Shown: positions 11,111 to 22,164, counted from the stretch's first letter. The stretch: DNA of 64,000 bases from an uncultured Methanosarcinales archaeon (GCA_963843555.1 CAWJKV010000012.1:54666-118665); one strand, 5' to 3'. Translations and numbers: made by a program. Notes: a model not told the origin generated them from the letters alone.

Positions 11111-12358
11111 CTATTTCTCAGTGGGATCGCTGATCCTGCCCATGAAACAGTATGCAGCCCGTTTCGCCATCTGTTATCATGAATATGAAGGGATGATCGG
11201 CACGGAAGACGGGCGTCCTTTGGACCCGCGAGCAAAGACCCCTGCTCATGATGACCGCCGTGGCTGCTGCCGCCTCAGTTCCTTCTTCGTTCACATCGAC
11301 ATAAGCCTGATGGATGACCTGCGCTTATGAACAGCCCTCCGCCTGGCACTTATCCCTGAGAAGTCAGCGTCTGCGAATGCGGTCGGCATCCCCAAATTCC
11401 GCAGGTTATTTTTCAAGAAGTATTTGGCATCGATCTTGAACTTGGGTATGTAGACATCGACGCGCTGCAGCGCTAAGCCCTCTCTCCATTGGGCGAGCTT
11501 TTCCACAGTGAGAGAACTCTCCAGCGAGGCGATGTCATGCTCTTTGGGCAGGAGAATAATCATGGAGAGTTTTTCCCCCAGGTAAGGCATCTGCAGCATC
11601 TGCATGTCTTCTGTCTCCAGGTAATTGAATTTGGCATCTTTGTCAAGCCGTCCTCATCATGGGTACAGTGACAGTCCTGCCGTCGCTCGTATGAAAATTC
11701 TCATCCCGTGTCAGGCTCTTGTCAAACTCTTTAACCCATGTGCCCTTGAAATATATGGCGTTGGTCAGGACCAGACAAGTCGAAGAATCGATATAGGGGG
11801 GAGGAATGAGATCTTTTATCTTTTGGGAGGTCTTCTGCTCCACCCAGGAGTTTATGGTCTTTCTGGCTTCTTCGCTTGCTCCTATGAAATCCAGGTTCGT
11901 CGCCCTGGCATGATAGATGCGATCCATCAGATCCCTATACCCATCGAGCAGCGAGAAGCCGTTATCCACCCAGAGGGCGTTGGCAGTAGAGAGGATATAG
12001 CCGGATATCGTTGGCATTGAATCGCTGGTCGAGCGAGGAAAACGACTGCCTTCTGACTGCTCTCATCGCCGGAGAAATGCAGCACGGATCGCATCTCATC
12101 TGCTGTCTTGCCTCTCGCCCCTTCATAGGTCATGGCCAGGGCCGTGTTCAGGCTCCAGGGAGAGAAGAAGATGTTCTCATCTTTGCCTGCCAGCTCCCGA
12201 TACATATCCAGAGCAAAGCGATTGCTGGCAATTGCAGTCTGTTCTATGTCTGTCAGCTGCACTTGAACAGACGGCTCAGATTTCATATTTTCCTGCCCCA
12301 GAGCGGGCTTAATTATCAGGATGAAGATAAACAGAATAAGAAAAAGCTCCAAATGCAT
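11111..12358 (-). CDS. Secreted serpin (split by several indels)
   Basis: Signal peptide; NIFFSPWS, YEGARGKT, ANALW, INSWVEQKT, LVLTNAIYFKGTW, PKFKI, DVNEEGTEAAAAT, FRADHPFIF, MGRISDP across successive frames. Confidence 0.9.
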
Positions 12359-14042: not shown

Positions 14043-15455
14043 TTATTTCTCGATCCACTTCCCATCCTTCTTCAGCCAATCGTCCATATCAGCTGCCGCG
14101 ATCTTGCCTTCGCCCATGGCGCTGATCACAGTTGCGCCGCCGCTGATGATGTCTCCTCCGGCCCAGACGCCCTCCATTGTCGTTCTCCCCCGTCCATCCA
14201 CCACCAGCGTGCCCCATTTGGTGGTCATGAGCTGGGGAGTGCTGGAGGCGATGAGGGGATTGGGAACTGTGCCGACAGCAATGACCACCGTGTCCACATC
14301 CACAGTATGCTCCGAGCCCTTCTTCACCCGGGGGCTTCTCCGGCCTGAGGCATCGGGCTCGCCCAGCTCCATCTCAACCACCTCCATGGCCTTGACCATG
14401 CCCCTATCGTCGCCTGAGAACCGGGTGGGATTGGTGAGGAAGTCGAAGATCACCCCCTCCTCCATGGCGTTCTCCACCTCTTCCAGACGGGCAGGCATCT
14501 CCTCACGAGAGCGTCGGTAAATGACATGCACCTCATCCGCTCCCAGGCGCATAGCAGAGCGGGCGGCATCCATGGCCACGTTTCCGCCTCCGACGACGGC
14601 CACCTTCTTGCCCTTTTTTATGGGCGTATCGTATTCCGGGAACTTGTAGGCCTTCATCAGGTTGACCCGGGTGAGATATTCGTTGGCAGAGTAAACGCCG
14701 CTCAGGTTCTCGCCGGGAACATTTAGAAAGCGGGGCGCGCCTGCGCCGATGCCCAGGAATACTGCGTTATAGCCACCTTTGAGCAGCTCCTCCACCTGGA
14801 TTTGTCTGCCCACCACAGAGTCAAGCTCCAGGTCGGCGCCCAGGGATTTGACGTACTCGATCTCCGACTTGACAATGTTCTTGGGCAGGCGAAACTCGGG
14901 AATGCCGTAGACCAGGACGCCTCCGCCATCATGCAGCGCCTCGAAGATGGTGACTTTGTGGCCCATTCTGGCCAGATCGGCTGCACAAGTGAGGCCAGCT
15001 GGGCCCGAGCCGACGACTGCGACGCGTTTGCCGGAGGGAGGGGCAACTTCACATACAGGGCACTTTTTCGTGGTCTGCTCCCAGTCGGCCACATAGCGTT
15101 CCAGACGGCCTATGGCCACAGGCGCCCCCTTCTTGGCCAGGATGCAGCGGCTCTCGCACTGCACCTCCTGGGGACAGACCCGGCCGCAGATTCCGGGCAG
15201 GCTGTTCTTTCTCTTGAGGGACAGGGCCGCCTCAGGCATATCCCCGTCCCGCAGGGCGCGAATGAAGACCGGAATCTCCACTCCCACCGGACAGCCTGCA
15301 ACGCACTTGGGCTTCTTGCATTGAAGACATCTGCCAGCCTCTTCTGCCGCCTGCTCTGGACTGTATCCCAGGGCAACCTCCTGGAAGTTGCGTTTCCTCT
15401 TCTCGGGAGATTGCTTGGGCATCTCCACCCGGCTTAAATTTATCTTGCTTGACAT
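14043..15455 (-). CDS. NfnB/SudA-like (GltD-family) FAD and 2x[4Fe-4S] NADPH oxidoreductase
   Basis: EAGRCLQCKKPKCVAGCP, CGRVCPQEVQCE, GSGPAG, GGVLVYGIPEFRLP, GGGNVAMD, YRRS, AGGD. Confidence 0.9.
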   Translation of the reverse strand: MSSKINLSRVEMPKQSPEKRKRNFQEVALGYSPEQAAEEAGRCLQCKKPKCVAGCPVGVEIPVFIRALRDGDMPEAALSLKRKNSLPGICGRVCPQEVQCESRCILAKKGAPVAIGRLERYVADWEQTTKKCPVCEVAPPSGKRVAVVGSGPAGLTCAADLARMGHKVTIFEALHDGGGVLVYGIPEFRLPKNIVKSEIEYVKSLGADLELDSVVGRQIQVEELLKGGYNAVFLGIGAGAPRFLNVPGENLSGVYSANEYLTRVNLMKAYKFPEYDTPIKKGKKVAVVGGGNVAMDAARSAMRLGADEVHVIYRRSREEMPARLEEVENAMEEGVIFDFLTNPTRFSGDDRGMVKAMEVVEMELGEPDASGRRSPRVKKGSEHTVDVDTVVIAVGTVPNPLIASSTPQLMTTKWGTLVVDGRGRTTMEGVWAGGDIISGGATVISAMGEGKIAAADMDDWLKKDGKWIEK

Positions 15456-15763
15456 CTCTTCTGCACCGCGCCTCTGTGGCTAAATTATCTTATTGCTGAT
15501 TATACTTATGCTCGGAGAACCCTGGATGTCTCCTTTCCATACATCTTTTCCAGATCCTGTGCCCTCAGACGGACCTGCAGATATAAATAAGATAATGCCT
15601 GTCGCGGGCTTCCTTGAAGAAGCATTTAAATCTATCCCTAGAAGATGGCTGACCCAGAACATTTTCCGACGAGGCACACCGTTTTGGAACTCTGCCGGTG
15701 ATTCCTTTTAGAGGAACGTTCTAATACAACCAATCCTCATCATTATTCGGCGCGGTTGGAAAC

Positions 15764-18514
15764 ATGTCCGAGATTAAACTGACCATCGATGATCGAGAAA
15801 TCCTGGTTCAGGAGGGTTCCACGATTCTGGAAGCAGCCCGCAAGGCCGGCTCTTAGTGCCAGCACTTTGCCACCACCCAGACCTCAAGCCCATCGGCTCC
15901 TGCAAGCTGTGCATCGTCTCTGTAAAAGGCCTGGACCATTACCCCGCAGCCTGCAATACCCAGGCGGAAGAGGGAATGGTGGTGGAGACCAGGACAGAAG
16001 AGCTACAGGAGATGAGAAGACACACCCTGGAGATGCTCTTAGCCCTTACCAACCATCCCACCAGCTGCCTGTTCTGTGATAGGAAAGACGAATGCAATGA
16101 CCTGCGCGAGTGCATGAGAAAGTTCCCTGTGACGGTAGGCTGCAAGTACTGCCCCAAGAACGGCGAATGCGAACTGCAGCAGGCAGTGGAGTTCGTGGGG
16201 CTGGAAAAAATCAGATATCAGATCTCTTTTAAAAATATGCCCGTCTTTGAGAGAGCCTTTCTTCGATCGCAATTACAATCTCTGCATCCTGTGCAGCCGT
16301 TGCGTGCGAGCCTGCCAGGAGGTGAGGGGCGAAGGCGTTCTCACCAGCAACCCCGATTTTCACCGCATGCACTGGATAGGCCCCGAGTCTCTGCAGGACT
16401 CGGACTGCAAGTTCTGCGGAGCATGCGTGGATATCTGCCCGACGGCTGCCCTCTACGCCCGATTTGAGAAATGGCAGAGGCCGGAAAAGACCATCTCGAC
16501 CATCTGCCCCTACTGCGGCGTGGGCTGCCAGATAGAGGTGGGCGTCCTGGACAACCGGCTGGTTAGGGTAAGGGGCAAGAGGGACAACCTGCCGAATTTT
16601 GGCCAGCTCTGCGTCAAGGGCCGCTTCGGCCTGGGCTTCGTGGATAGCCCGGAGCGTCTCACTGTGCCTCTCATCAGGAAGAATGATAAACTGGTGCCGG
16701 CGACCTGGGAGGAAGCACTGGAATTGGTGGCCGGAAAATTGAATGGCTATAAAGGCGACAGCTTTGCTTTCCTATCGTCGGCCAAGTGCAGCAATGAGGA
16801 GAACTATCTGGCCCAGAAGTTCGCCCGGCTGGTTATGCAGACCAACAACGTAGATCACTGCGCCCGGCTCTGCCATGCCTCGACCGTATCCGCCCTGGCT
16901 CTCGCTTTCGGCAGCGGAGCCATGACCAACTCCATTTCGGAGCTGGCGGATGCCGGATGCATATTCATCATCGGCTCGAACACCAGCGAGCAGCATCCCG
17001 TCATCGCCCTCAAGATAAAAGAGGCGAAAAGGAAGGGTGCCAGGATAATCGTCGCCAACCCCCGCTGGATCGACCTCTGCAAGATCGCGGACGTCTGGCT
17101 GCGGCAGACTCCGGGAACGGACGTGCCCCTCGTCCTGGAGATGTGCCGCATAATTCTGGAAGAGGGGCTAATGGACGAGAGCTTCATCTCGGAGAGAACG
17201 GAGGGCTTTGATGATTTCAAGGCCTCCCTCTTGAAGCTGTCCGGATCGGACGCGGCGCGCATTACGGGCGTGAATTCGGAGCTCATCCGAGATGCTGCCC
17301 GAATCTATGCCAGGGGCAATCCCTCTTCTATAATCTATTCCATGGGCATCACCCAGCACTCTCATGGCGTGGATAACATCTTTGCTCTCGCCAATCTGGC
17401 CATGATGACCGGGAATGTGGGGAAGCCCTCCTCGGGCATCAATCCCCTGAGAGGCCAGAACAATGTGCAGGGCTCCTGCGACATGGGAGCTCTTCCCAAT
17501 CTTCTGCCGGCATACCAGGCCGTGACCAATCCCGATCTGAGAGGGAAATTCGAGCAGGCCTGGGGAGCGGCTCTGCCGGAAAATCCCGGTCTCACCGTTG
17601 TCGAGATGATGGATGCCGCAGCGGAGGGCAAGATTCGGGCCATGTACATTATGGGAGAAAATCCAGTTGTCAGCGATCCAGACAGCAGTCATGTGATAGA
17701 GGCCCTGAAATCCCTGGATTTCCTGGTAGTGCAGGATATCTTCCTCTCCGAGACGGCTGCATTGGCGGACGTGGTCCTGCCGGCAACGTCCGGCCTGGAG
17801 AAGGACGGAACCTTCACCAATACGGAACGCCGGGTGCAGAGGATCAGGAAGGCCCTTGACCCCGTCGGTGAGTCCATGCCCGACTGGATGATCCTGTGCG
17901 CTCTGGCCGGTCGCATGGGCTGGGACAGCCAGTTCAGCTATGACGACCCCGGCCAGATCATGTCTGAGGCGGCAAAGCTCGCTCCCAGCTACGGTGGCAT
18001 AAGCTATGAGCGGCTGGAGGGCGACGGGCTGCAGTGGCCCTGCCCCAACGCTGAGCATCCAGGAACCCAGTACCTGCATAAAGGCCAGTTTACAAGGGGC
18101 AAGGGCAAGTTCAATGTCGTCGACTACCGGCCTTCCATGGAGTTGCCCGATGAAGAGTATCCTTTTATTCTCACCACAGGCAGAGTTCTCTGCCAGTATC
18201 ATACCGGAACCATGACGCGAAAGGTGGGCGACCTCAACCTTCTCAGAAATGAGGAGCTGGTGGAGATGAATCCGCAAGATGCTCTCAGGTTGAGCATTGA
18301 AGACGGCGAGCTGATAGAGGTCAAATCCCGCCGCGGAGCAGTCCGGGCCAAAGCCAGGACCACAGAAAAGTCGCCTGCCGGCGTAGTCTTCATGACCTTC
18401 CACTTCTCAGAGACGCCCACCAACGTTCTTACCAATCCGGCCTTGGACCCCATCGCCAAGATCCCGGAATTCAAGGTATGTGCCGTGAAGCTGAATAAGA
18501 TTAGAGGAGGCTAG
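15764..18514 (+). CDS. fdhA: Mo/W-bisPGD formate dehydrogenase alpha subunit with N-terminal [2Fe-2S] and [4Fe-4S] modules (two indels near 15855 and 16246)
   Basis: MSEIKLTIDDREI..EGSTILEAA; LCHHP..GSCKLC; CILCSRCVRAC; CKFCGACVDICP; CPYCGVGC; LCVKG; active site DHCARLCHAS (Cys); LRGQNNVQG; PEFKVCAV. Confidence 0.92.
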
Positions 18515-18516
18515 AG

Positions 18517-19455
18517 ATGTACGAGATCATAACCAAGGAGACTGTAGCTCCCAATATCATTTACATGAAACTGAAAGCTCCCAAGATTGCGGCCACTGCC
18601 AGACCGGGTCAGTTTGTGATCATAAGAGTGGACGAGCGTGGGGAGAGAATACCCATGGGCCTGGCCGGCTGGGATGAGCTGGAGGGCACAGTGGACATTG
18701 TCTTCTACGTTTTGGGGACAAGCACGGCCAAGCTATCCACGATGAAAGAAGGCGAATCAGTGGCCAACATCGCCGGACCCCTGGGAAAACCCACCGAGAT
18801 CGAGAACTTCGGAAGAGTCATCTGCGCCTGCGGTTGCTTTGGGGCCGGCCCATCACTGCCGCTCATAAAGGCCCTCAAGGAGAAAGGCAACTATGTGATA
18901 ACGGTCGTGGAGAGCCGCGGCCCTGATTTCGTTTTCTGGAAGGATAAACTCAAAGAGTATAGCGATGAGATTCATGTTGTGACGGGCTGCGGCAAGACCG
19001 CCTGGGCCAATGATTTCATAGAGCAGGAGCTGCAGTCCGGAAATAAGATCGACAGGATCTTTGCTCATGGCTGTCCCTTCATGATGAAGGTATCCTCGGA
19101 TGCCTCACGGGCCGCGGGTGTAGAAACGATCGTCAGCCTCACACCTCTCATGGTGGACGGCACGGGCATGTGCGGTGCCTGCCGGGTGGAGGTGGACGGG
19201 AAGACCCAGTTCGCCTGTGTGGACGGTCCGGATTTCGGAGGCCACTCTGTCAACTGGGATGGGCTTGTTCTGCGGCTGCGCCAGCTTATTCCGGAAGAGG
19301 ACAGATCCTTCAATCTTTGGGAGAGGGATAACTGGCATAAGCTGATGGACAGCAAAACCAAGAAGAGCTTCAATCCGGCAAAGAGAAGGACTGCAGCCGA
19401 GCTGGAACATCATGAGGGCCACAGCCACGGTGGCTGCAGCTCCGCCGGGGCCTGA
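18517..19455 (+). CDS. NfnA/SudB-like (PyrK-family) FAD and [2Fe-2S] subunit
   Basis: ARPGQFVIIRVDERGERIP, GPLGKP, MVDGTGMCGACRV..FACVDGPDF; starts 2 nt after fdhA stop. Confidence 0.9.
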   Translation: MYEIITKETVAPNIIYMKLKAPKIAATARPGQFVIIRVDERGERIPMGLAGWDELEGTVDIVFYVLGTSTAKLSTMKEGESVANIAGPLGKPTEIENFGRVICACGCFGAGPSLPLIKALKEKGNYVITVVESRGPDFVFWKDKLKEYSDEIHVVTGCGKTAWANDFIEQELQSGNKIDRIFAHGCPFMMKVSSDASRAAGVETIVSLTPLMVDGTGMCGACRVEVDGKTQFACVDGPDFGGHSVNWDGLVLRLRQLIPEEDRSFNLWERDNWHKLMDSKTKKSFNPAKRRTAAELEHHEGHSHGGCSSAGA

Positions 19456-19720
19456 ACTGCTTTTCCGGCGGATCCAAGCGGCCGCCAGAATGAAGAATCT
19501 TGCAGCTTGAATGAAGATTAAATCAAGGAATGCAGACTGCCGGGGGCTGGACTTGCATATAGAAGAGTTTCTCACGGGCGTGCTCAAGCGTCACGCCCCT
19601 GCCCAATCATGAGACCCATTGCTGCCTTCCTGAAATATTCGATTCTAAATAAGATGAAGTTCTATTTTTCCGTCCATAGAAACTTTTCATGATTCTTTTT
19701 ATTTTACATTATGCTTCAAA

Positions 19721-19775
19721 TGGATTCATAATTTTTCACAATATTTCATAATTCTTCATAACTTTTCACAATTCT
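19721..19775. repeat. Degenerate 10-bp tandem repeat (about ATTYTTCAYA x5) upstream of the FNT gene
   Basis: tggattcata/atttttcaca/atatttcata/attcttcata/acttttcaca/attct. Confidence 0.75.
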
Positions 19776-19928
19776 GCTGACTGCAACCGCAATCCTTTTA
19801 CACAATTCCGCCAGCACGAGTGGCCATCCTGCGGGCCGCCTTCGAAGCAAAGCGATTTGGTTCATCCAGTCCCCAAACAAGCTTCAATCGCAAGAATTCC
19901 AGGCTGCCCGTTTTAATGGAGGGAGAAT

Positions 19929-20844
19929 ATGGCATTCAAAATCCCCGCTGATATCGCCAAGGCAGCGATCGCTGCCGGATGCACGAAATGCAACATAACC
20001 TGGCAAAAGCTGCTGGTGCTGGGCTTTCTGGCCGGAGCTTACATCGCCTTCGGAGCCCTGTTGAGCGAGATCGTGGCTGGAGGCCTGTCCAACGGCACGA
20101 TCACAGGTCCTGATGGCGCCATCTGGAAGATCGCTCTGCCGGCAGGCCTCGTAAAGTTCGCAGCGGGTGCAGTGTTCCCTGTGGGACTCATGCTGGTAGT
20201 GATTGCCGGCTCTGAACTCTTCACGGGAAACTGCATGTTCGCACCCATAAGCGTACTGAACGGAGAGGCTCCCATCAAGGGTCTTCTTAAGAACTGGTCA
20301 ATCGTCTATCTGGGCAACTTCCTGGGATCTATCTTCGTGGCCTATTTCCTGGCATACCAGTGCGGATTTTTCGATAGCCTTCCCTGGGCGGGCTGGGCGG
20401 CGACTGTGGCCAACACCAAATGCGGCCTGGACTTTGGCACTGCATTCCTGCGGGGAATAGGCTGCAACTGGCTGGTCTGCCTGGCGGTCTGGCTGGCCAT
20501 AAGCTCGGAAGATGTGATAAGCAAGATCTTCGCCTGCTGGTTCCCTATCATGGCATTCGTCGCCATCGGCTTCGAGCACAGTGTGGCTAATATGTTCTTC
20601 ATACCTCTGGGCATCTTTGCCGCCAACGATCCGGCCATTGCATCCAATCTGGCCACTGCGGGTGTGGCTACTGCAAACCTCGCCGGCGGCGTGGGATGGT
20701 ACAATTTCTTCGTCACCAATCTCATTCCCGTCACACTGGGCAACATCGTGGGGGCGGCACTCTTCGTGGCTGCACTCTACTGGTATGTCTACCTCCGGGG
20801 ACCTCTTTGCGTGCATGAGCCCCGAGAAGACCACGAAGAAGTAA
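19929..20844 (+). CDS. fdhC: Formate/nitrite transporter (FNT family, FdhC/FocA-like)
   Basis: [60 protein letters not shown]; probable indel in C-run near 20820 gives stop at 20844. Confidence 0.88.
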
Positions 20845-20928: not shown

Positions 20929-22164
20929 TCAGGCGGATATGTTCATCTCGCTGGATCTGGGAGCATAACCTGCCAGCTCCATATAACCGATGCCGATCTG
21001 CTTACCGGTATGGTTCTCCTCCCGTATTCGCATAATCCCTTCCCAGTACTTCACTTCACCATCTGCCACATTCATGGTCTGCTCGTCGAAGTATGGCTCC
21101 AGGGCAAATCTGCCTGCAGGGGTGTTGATGACCCATTCCAGTGGGTACTTGAATCCGAACAGGTCCGATGTCCACCATCTGGATGCTGTCAAGTTGGCGG
21201 CATCGTCTCCCGCCCACCAGGTCGCATTGCCAAGAGAGTCGATATAAGTCAGGCCGCGCATACTTGGTATATCCTTCAGTGAGGGGTCCTTGAGGTTATA
21301 GAGCATCACATAGCTGCCATTATCAAGACGCATGCTGAACCAATCCCAGGCAGGGAGACATCTTCCAAAGCCACCCCACTGATGATCAAACCAGCTATCA
21401 CCACGAACCTTAATCTCCCGCCCATCAATGGTCACTGTTCCTGTGGTATTCATGGCCGGATGGGAGTAGTAATAGGTCATTCCTGTCATGTTCTCTGCGT
21501 CTATCTTCTCGCAGGCCCCCATGGCGCTGACGCCCCCAGGCCGGTGCAGATAATAGCCCAGCTTGTCGTCAACCAGAGTCAGATTCAGGGATATGTTCTT
21601 TCCATGGCCGCCATCGTCTGATACATTTCCCGATGTGAGAATGTTCCAGGCATCCTGATCCTGCCAATAGGTAAGGTTGGTATGTGCATCCTGGTAGCGC
21701 CAATAGTCGCCTTTTATGCTGTCAGTGCCATTGGTGATCCCGGCCTGGTCAGGAAGAGTTGCATATCTGTAACGGGGATGCTGGCTGTTGTAGACATCGC
21801 TTATTGCAGCGTGATTTACGTATCCGATCAAACCAGGTTCGAGGTTTTGCTGGAAGAGGGTGTACTGAAATCCCAAGAGTTCGCCGGTCTTTATGTCGTT
21901 CAGGCCTCCTGTCCAGTAAAGCCATTCCACGAACAGCTCAGGGTCCTTAACAACAGATTGGGGCTGGTGGAGCAGATGGTCGGCGGGGAAATGGTATACG
22001 GTTTCAGCCTTTCCACTAATCACATCACCGAGTGGAGGCGAGCTGTTATTCAGTACCTGGCCTGTAGAATCAGCTAGCGTGAGAGGCACGAGCGCCATTA
22101 TAAGGCCGCCGATCAGCAGCAGGACCAATATAGAATGGAAGCATTTAATTCTTGATGTCATCAT
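20929..22164 (-). CDS. Secreted AttH/CrtC-like lipocalin-fold protein
   Basis: Signal peptide; [46 protein letters not shown]. Confidence 0.8.

Follow-up and report, generated by a model that had tools for sequence, protein, structure and literature searches.

A formate dehydrogenase gene nested within a cysteine-variant Nfn gene pair in Methanothrix relatives: a candidate formate- and ferredoxin-dependent NADP+ reductase

Introduction

Among described systems, the NfnAB/NfnSL enzymes of Thermotoga maritima (4YLF) and Pyrococcus furiosus (NfnI, 5JCA) come close to the locus reported here, which lies in a 64,000-nucleotide stretch of DNA from an uncultured Methanosarcinales archaeon (GCA_963843555.1, CAWJKV010000012.1:54666-118665; the whole stretch is called the window, and positions are counted from its first letter). 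The closest named relatives of the source are Methanothrix/Methanotrichaceae metagenome-assembled genomes (MAGs). The locus encodes an Nfn large subunit (NfnL), a variant small subunit that we write NfnS*, a long formate dehydrogenase (FDH) and a formate channel. It shares with NfnAB/NfnSL the NfnL clusters and their Glu ligand, the b-FAD Arg, the NADPH-site Args, the small-subunit fold and the [2Fe-2S] ligands. It differs in having two Cys in place of the NAD loops, in the loss of the a-FAD Thr, and in a Mo/W FDH gene set between the two Nfn genes. The NAD domain of the small subunit is also altered in P. furiosus NfnII (Xfn, 5VJ7), which has no NAD activity according to the available part of PMC6405883; unlike NfnS*, NfnII has GAYTG/GP loops, no Cys and no known protein partner.

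On the FDH side, type 1 Fdh-Bfu and HylABC-FdhF2 join a BfuA/NuoG-type Fe-S domain to a pterin FDH domain (PMC9304861 and PMC5861303, as far as available). Since our locus has a BfuA-type FDH without BfuBC, the module is not an Fdh-Bfu. In those enzymes formate donates at mid potential, its electrons being split between NAD and ferredoxin, and the bifurcating FDHs tabulated in the accessible part of PMC5861303 likewise take formate as mid-potential donor. In our locus, by contrast, formate would serve NfnL as a high-potential donor. StnABC/NfnABC (8OH5, 9BOV, 9N5U) likewise combine NuoG-type, NfnL-like and FdhA-like modules, and the nonmethanogen NfnS* loci resemble them in carrying nuoE/nuoF. 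However, their NfnL-like domain is fused into BfuA and is nonbifurcating with a Lys ligand (available text of PMC12018979), and they have neither an NfnS nor a doubled Cys motif, whereas the NfnL of our locus stands alone and has Glu119. In the archaeon Thermococcus onnurineus, the NADP-reducing FDH Fdh3 is also active with ferredoxin and has a formate transporter encoded in its gene cluster. It departs from our locus in its short FdhA, its NAD(P) subunit of 39 kDa and its pair of small Fe-S proteins, with no NfnS/NfnL pair reported in the part of PMC8965080 at hand. The methanogen FdhAB and FdhAB-Hdr systems resemble the locus in that a Mo/W FDH of the Cys type goes together with a gene for a formate channel; the locus differs in lacking FdhB and Hdr and in its long N-terminal Fe-S domain. 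Judged by sequence, the module is neither a StnABC/NfnABC nor an F420-FdhAB.

Our literature search, with subscription papers mostly outside its reach and with Supplementary Table 1 of PMC9304861 as one place that could list it, found no description of the module or of the Cys variant. In their available parts, PMC9304861 gives F420-Bfu for the Methanosaetaceae with no NfnS-linked type, PMC6405883 has methanogen Nfn as unstudied, and PMC6085437, PMC5736913, PMC9012536 and PMC8965080 do not describe the module. New here are the Cys-rewired small subunit, the three extra Cys of its partner, the fusions of the two and the NuoEFG form of the system. We favor, at slightly better than even chances, the reading that the locus encodes an NADP+ reductase that runs on formate and ferredoxin and has a rewired Nfn at its core, with FdhA feeding NfnS* in place of NADH. 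That FdhA forms some physical complex with the Nfn subunits is quite probable.

Results and Discussion

The small subunit and its partner both carry extra Cys

Profile searches of the window proteins found the genes where an earlier note on this sequence had placed them: an nfnB-type gene on the minus strand divergent from fdhA on the plus strand, an nfnA-type gene 2 nt past the fdhA stop and an FNT-family gene next. The gene order is thus nfnL (-), then fdhA-nfnS*-fnt (+). The earlier note had not picked out that FdhA belongs to the long NuoG type and has an additional Cys insert, or that the NAD site of the small subunit is altered.

14043..15455, minus strand: nfnL, NfnB/SudA-type large subunit, 470 aa (TIGR01316 above cut-off)
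15456..15763, no strand: divergent intergenic region, its flanks kept in relatives
15764..18514, plus strand: fdhA, long NuoG/BfuA-type Mo/W-bisPGD FDH (ATG at 15764; TIGR01591)
18517..19455, plus strand: nfnS*, variant NfnA/SudB small subunit, 312 aa
19760..19928, plus strand: conserved element upstream of the channel gene
19929..20844, plus strand: fnt, FNT-family (formate/nitrite) channel gene (TIGR00790 above cut-off)

Among solved structures, the nfnS* product is closest to the small subunit of P. furiosus NfnI (5JCA_S, E 2e-74), and its predicted fold is unchanged (TM 0.88 to 5JCA_S). The [2Fe-2S] ligands, an Asp and three Cys, are retained (Asp214, Cys219, Cys222 and Cys234), and the protein ends in a variable, His-rich tail. 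The canonical GGGxG and GP loops, which form the NAD site in the FNR family, were not found. Compared with 5JCA_S and 4YLF_A, GGGVG has become CGCFG (G106-C107-F108-G109) and AVGP has become AHGC (G185-C186). Cys107 and Cys186 are present in 62/62 variants among the matches listed, while the canonical columns hold Gly in 73/73 and Pro in 72/73. In the model, each of the two Cys follows a strand of the nucleotide-binding domain; by analogy with the FNR fold, they would lie side by side and line the old NAD site. The a-FAD strand ERxPxT was also absent, the sequence here being ERIPMG with Gly48 in place of a Thr found in 73/73 canonical proteins. Because the small subunit is unlike an NAD-binding NfnA, which the earlier note had assumed, NAD is probably not a substrate. 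The module would work in the manner of NfnSL, but since two NfnS features are absent it should not be filed as an NADH-dependent NfnAB.

The main piece of fdhA (755 aa) is a member of the FDH family by TIGR01591, at 835 bits against a cut-off of 666. FdhA is 916 to 917 aa long in relatives. Its active site, DHCARLCHAST, contains the Cys/Sec-His motif with Cys, not Sec. The N-terminus holds a [2Fe-2S] site, a doubled His-[4Fe-4S] motif (HxxxCxxCx5C...CxxCx5C) and then two further [4Fe-4S] sites. The doubled motif (H98, C102, C105 and C111, plus C127, C130 and C136) has three Cys beyond what one His-[4Fe-4S] needs. It is present in all 62 NfnS* partners among the matches listed and was not found in the closest solved FDH, HydA and BfuA chains, which have the single motif. 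Within three pairs of tandem FdhA paralogues, the Fe-S domains share 84 to 90% and the catalytic parts only 52%, a pattern that a common docking site would produce. Across the genus we also saw two long FdhA types, DHCARLCHAST and DNCARVCHAPS (L104, L106, L107 and other genus loci), with a near-identical Fe-S N-terminus and 52% in the catalytic part; these are possibly Mo versus W isoenzymes or the outcome of domain conversion.

The large subunit is, by sequence, canonical. The best solved match of the nfnL product is T. maritima NfnB (4YLF_B, E 1e-169), with P. furiosus NfnL also among the best. Two [4Fe-4S] motifs (RCx2Cx4Cx3CPV and GRVCPQExQC...ER) at residues 42-58 and 90-120 supply the ligands C43, C46, C51 and C55, and C94, C100 and C104 with Glu119. 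The putative b-FAD Arg189 (EFRLP; Arg187 in T. maritima) and NADPH-site Arg314-Arg315 (YRRS) align with 4YLF_B. The accessible parts of PMC6405883 and PMC12018979 name these cluster motifs, the Glu ligand and the Arg residues for NfnL. NfnL proteins beside NfnS* have no notable distinguishing residue and are not monophyletic (65 variant and 75 canonical loci among the matches listed).

Linkage and fusions across phyla

Searched for as a DNA pattern, the Cys loops matched at least 119 stretches from many bacterial and archaeal phyla; 39 of these, which lacked flanks, were left uncounted. Neighbors were counted at deduplicated loci with at least 2.5 kb upstream; L146 was scored as canonical, though it carries both Cys. 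A NuoG/FdhA-type gene adjoins 60/62 of the listed NfnS* loci versus 3/74 canonical NfnS loci, and nuoF is near 54/62 versus 6/74. The genes usually run nuoE-nuoF-nuoG-like-nfnS*-nfnL. Only 6/62 listed partners (5 Methanotrichaceae and 1 Desulfobacteraceae) contain the Cys-His active site of FDH, and the rest are without it. In a tree made with IQ-TREE, with the motif columns masked, NfnS* formed one clade (SH-aLRT 98.4) that included one half-variant (L098); the set held 81 variants and 41 canonical sequences, 40 of them sampled from 94 plus the genome's own. FastTree gave a support of only 0.35 at the NfnS* root. In 10 of the listed loci and in 8/150 library representatives, the partner is fused to NfnS* in a single chain, and in one such fusion (P0089) nearly the whole Mo domain is gone.

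The fusions bear on where FdhA would dock. It could instead dock on NfnL, acting at the distal [4Fe-4S] like an internal ferredoxin. The complex would then be a simple formate:NADP+ oxidoreductase, with NfnS* either playing a structural part or handing electrons via its Cys pair to a disulfide/sulfur acceptor. An NfnL-like domain is indeed fused to NuoG-type Fe-S domains in the solved StnC and NfnA chains and, with the doubled Cys insert, in 2/150 library representatives. As far as the sources were available, NADP-specific FDHs exist (T. onnurineus Fdh3, PMC8965080), and P. furiosus NfnII, without NAD activity, may use another acceptor (PMC6405883). However, every fusion in the listed NfnS* loci joins the partner to NfnS* and none joins it to NfnL, a Methanothrix Bfu-type cluster (nuoE-nuoF-nuoG-nfnS*) has its nfnL elsewhere, and NfnL has no change specific to the partner. 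The uncoupled reaction would also be uphill at in situ formate, and the disulfide version would waste 57 to 65 kJ/mol. We consider docking on NfnL unlikely. Since the changes map to NfnS and to the Fe-S domain of the partner, FdhA feeding NfnS* is the most likely wiring.

Conservation in the genus and the rest of the genome

We compared 58 other Methanothrix-like genomes. nfnL was present in 53/58, and a close NfnS orthologue (at least 67% identity) in 45/58. With a threshold of 73%, the N-terminus of the long FdhA was found in 44/58. NfnS* and the long-FdhA N-terminus matched in presence or absence in 55/58 (both in 43, neither in 12), and the 3 discordant genomes are 58 to 69% complete. In the 45 genomes with the FDH-type NfnS*, fdhA is nested between nfnL and nfnS* in 31 (9 of these with two fdhA copies), nfnL and nfnS* are adjacent with a long fdhA elsewhere in 5, and contig ends split the locus in 9. 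The synteny search thus found the nested layout kept in 31/58 genus genomes, which argues that the arrangement is not chance. A Methanothrix harundinacea MAG (L217) has fnt-fdhA-nfnS-nfnL on a single strand, and two Desulfobacterales MAGs have fdhA-nfnS-nfnL (L242; L022 partial). Most genus genomes have two nfnS matches. Several Methanothrix genomes without the FDH type have nuoE-nuoF-nuoG-nfnS* apart from nfnL (L131, L132, L298 and L299), and L301 is such a cluster in a genome with both types.

Within the source genome (82% complete), nfnL was found in one copy only and nfnS in two, the second being canonical and on contig C2. The earlier note had seen no F420-binding fdhB in the window, and this extends to the whole of contig C12, which has no FrhB/FdhB-family (PF04432) match; the genome has four, on C7 (2), C15 and C16. 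Those on C7 and C16 adjoin their own short fdhA. The BfuB/BfuC core is absent from the locus operon, the genome's only nuoF match being on C7 with its own F420-type BfuA. We judged it unlikely that FdhB or BfuBC acts in trans with FdhA. This C7 region (L135:2631-11700, G000:C7) contains a short fdhA-fdhB, then nuoE-nuoF and an FrhB-domain BfuA of the F420-Bfu type described in the available text of PMC9304861, with several frame changes. Methanothrix is thus not without F420-type FDH, since the genome has fdhA-fdhB pairs and an F420-Bfu operon elsewhere.

Could the genes of the locus merely be coregulated? In that case the partner of FdhA would be a NuoEF/BfuBC, FdhB or ferredoxin from another part of the genome, and NfnS*L would be a separate ferredoxin:NADP reductase like NfnII. 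The nuoE-nuoF pair on C7 fits this idea, as do the five genomes in which the long fdhA lies away from nfnL and nfnS*. But nuoEF on C7 comes with an F420-type BfuA of its own, the FdhB homologues on C7 and C16 each have a short fdhA next to them, and the 60/62 versus 3/74 linkage among the matches listed comes together with natural fusions. Coregulation alone therefore appears improbable. Synteny, matched presence and absence, cross-phylum co-occurrence and fusions together support the proposal that FdhA, NfnA and NfnB form one module for formate, NADP(H) and ferredoxin, with the small subunit as the part that departs from it.

Proposed mechanism and energetics

We envisage a soluble three-subunit enzyme, FdhA-NfnS*-NfnL, with its own formate channel. 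NfnL would be a normal bifurcating subunit, with NADP(H) at the b-FAD and ferredoxin at the distal [4Fe-4S]. NfnS* would keep the [2Fe-2S] of the high-potential arm and have lost the NAD site, and its two new Cys would meet the three extra Cys of the FdhA Fe-S domain, probably as a metal or Fe-S contact. FdhA would then supply (or take) high-potential electrons instead of NADH. Electrons would run from FdhA through its Fe-S chain, NfnS* and the [2Fe-2S] to the b-FAD of NfnL, which ferredoxin would reach through the [4Fe-4S] pair. The net reaction would be formate + 2 Fd(red) + 2 NADP+ <-> CO2 + 2 Fd(ox) + 2 NADPH, where Fd is ferredoxin. The genes, their motifs, their co-occurrence and the fusions are observed, while the complex itself, docking on NfnS* rather than NfnL, the bridging cluster, bifurcation and direction are points that we infer.

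Digester formate of about 2.5 uM equals 4.5 Pa H2 in the available part of PMC7382037, and this figure gives an in situ formate potential of about -280 mV. With assumed potentials of -360/-380 mV for NADP and -450/-500 mV for ferredoxin, formate to NADP+ alone costs +15 to +19 kJ/mol, while with 2 reduced ferredoxin the range is -12 to +6 kJ/mol. The cell would likely use it to make NADPH for anabolism, with formate scavenged at micromolar levels halving the ferredoxin cost. Because the coupled reaction is near equilibrium, it would be reversible, and the same wiring might run in reverse in vivo, with NADPH split to reduced ferredoxin and CO2 and the formate used for purine synthesis or exported via the channel. 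PurP uses formate, and the genome has a PurP-family gene (PF06973). Yet a large NADPH source is not evident, and a dedicated channel is equally suited to uptake. An acetoclast, moreover, makes reduced ferredoxin in its catabolism and needs NADPH. The reverse direction is, in our view, quite unlikely.

If NADP+ reduction by formate and ferredoxin is correct, it would answer what formate is for in Methanothrix, a dominant acetate-consuming methanogen that is not known to have hydrogenases and whose FDHs have no settled role, and would provide it with cheap NADPH. Methanothrix would then be a sink in interspecies formate transfer without growth on formate. A ferredoxin-driven formate/NADPH enzyme could also be useful for cofactor regeneration or CO2 reduction.

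Outside FDH-type loci, NuoEFG would take the place of FdhA. We tentatively propose, with a confidence that stops short of even, that NfnS* is an undescribed branch of Nfn whose high-potential arm connects to a NuoG/BfuA-type wire. The contact would be Cys-ligated, possibly an intersubunit Fe-S one, and would occupy the former NAD site. The wire would end in an FDH in Methanotrichaceae and some Desulfobacterales, which would be the first case of bifurcation with formate/CO2 on the high-potential side, and in a BfuBC core in many other bacteria and archaea, giving two unrelated bifurcation sites in series. The nuoE-nuoF-nuoG-like-nfnS*-nfnL operon is a candidate Bfu-Nfn hybrid of the latter kind. 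With the Cys-rewired NfnS and NuoEFG found in more than a dozen phyla among the matches listed, this would be a modular joining of two bifurcating families.

Several points weigh against our favored reading. No FdhA-NfnS* interface was demonstrated by any computation. Interprotein mutual information over 62 listed pairs (Meff 44) had a top z of 7.1, inside the 6.2 to 7.4 of five shuffled pairings, and AlphaFold2 of the natural fusion P0089 (18 sequences) reached a pTM of 0.55 with the Fe-S half poorly modelled; these two results speak neither for nor against a contact. The N5-contacting a-FAD Thr is replaced by Gly in the Methanothrix group (7/62 listed variants), so FAD binding or chemistry may differ there. 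The Methanothrix FdhA also has an eighth ligand candidate, C117 (7/62 listed partners), which could complete a second cluster alone and thus weakens the bridging-cluster idea in Methanothrix. The doubled Cys motif stands beside canonical NfnS in two Chloroflexi loci (L044 and L152), two variant loci (L033 and L234) have no partner nearby, and the loci are kin to one another, so that the counts overstate independence. An F420:NADP oxidoreductase gene in the genome provides another NADPH route, and the FDH reported as expressed in situ in Methanothrix is the Hdr-linked one (available part of PMC7382037). Finally, frame changes in fdhA and fnt exceed the background of 2/37 other test genes of the assembly.

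Reading frames and promoter regions

The window fdhA is read in three frames. Compared with 9/9 aligned relatives, all of which are in frame, it lacks 1 nt near 15855 and has 1 nt too many near 16244. The fnt gene has a 1-nt insertion near its 3' end, past which its frame runs on to 21035; in 6/6 relatives, fnt ends about 10 codons past the insertion point, in agreement with a stop at 20844. In relatives the divergent region spans 134 to 170 bp and includes an AT-rich element that resembles a TATA box. At 15510-15690 the window carries an additional 175 bases or so, missing from 10 relatives and single copy in the genome.

These two fdhA indels, the fnt indel and the 175-bp promoter insertion would all fit a module decaying in the source genome only, with fdhA a pseudogene. 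Against this, the 755-aa main piece has no in-frame stop, retains all ligands and is 91% identical to relatives, like the neighbor genes. The same assembly also has frame changes in the C7 and C16 fdhA, the BfuA start and a presumed serpin gene. A search of sequencing runs for the source gave a best DNA share of 0.15 and no RNA run, and contigs from four runs had no same-strain cover of the indels. We regard assembly error as the likely, if unproven, origin of the indels and decay as rather unlikely; the pseudogene question leaves the family-level reading unaffected.

The element upstream of fnt (AACCGCAA..TTTTAC..) suggests that the channel gene may have its own promoter. A scan for bacterial promoters and terminators gave 6 and 3 sites versus 3.6 and 4.9 by chance.

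Other observations

The orphan canonical nfnS of the source genome (L134:5303-6187, G000:C2) has glnA and glutamate-synthase-like genes at a distance of some 3 kb, together with polyferredoxin genes and a short fdhA; it may pair with the single nfnL for an NADH-dependent activity. The genome (82% complete) gave no clear hydrogenase large subunit and one weak NiFe match. In the genus, L292 (G063:C24) has a canonical nfnS, a second nfnL (62%) and a single-Cys-motif long fdhA, divergent from the usual nfnL. Two loci from another family of the class (L126 and L127) have a long single-motif FdhA directly behind a nuoF-like gene, an Fdh-Bfu-like unit.

Chloroflexi NuoG-type proteins (L044, L152 and P0148) have the doubled motif and an eighth Cys and lie by a canonical nfnS-nfnL; L044 and P0148 are fused to an NfnL-like domain. 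Loci with nuoE-nuoF-nuoG-like-nfnS*-nfnL and a noncatalytic Mo domain (L023, L025, L026, L045 and L172-L247) are widespread and come from many bacteria, Thorarchaeota, Thermoplasmatota and Bathyarchaeia. In some NfnS* operons (L174, L186, L198 and L244), NuoF is fused to an NfnL/GltD-like domain (about 1050 aa).

Elsewhere in the window, a minus-strand gene at 11291-12358, which we take from its motifs to be serpin-like, is in three open reading frame pieces and is probably another frameshifted gene of the assembly. At 20929-22164, also on the minus strand and convergent on fnt, lies a gene for a secreted-looking protein with a CrtC/lipocalin domain.

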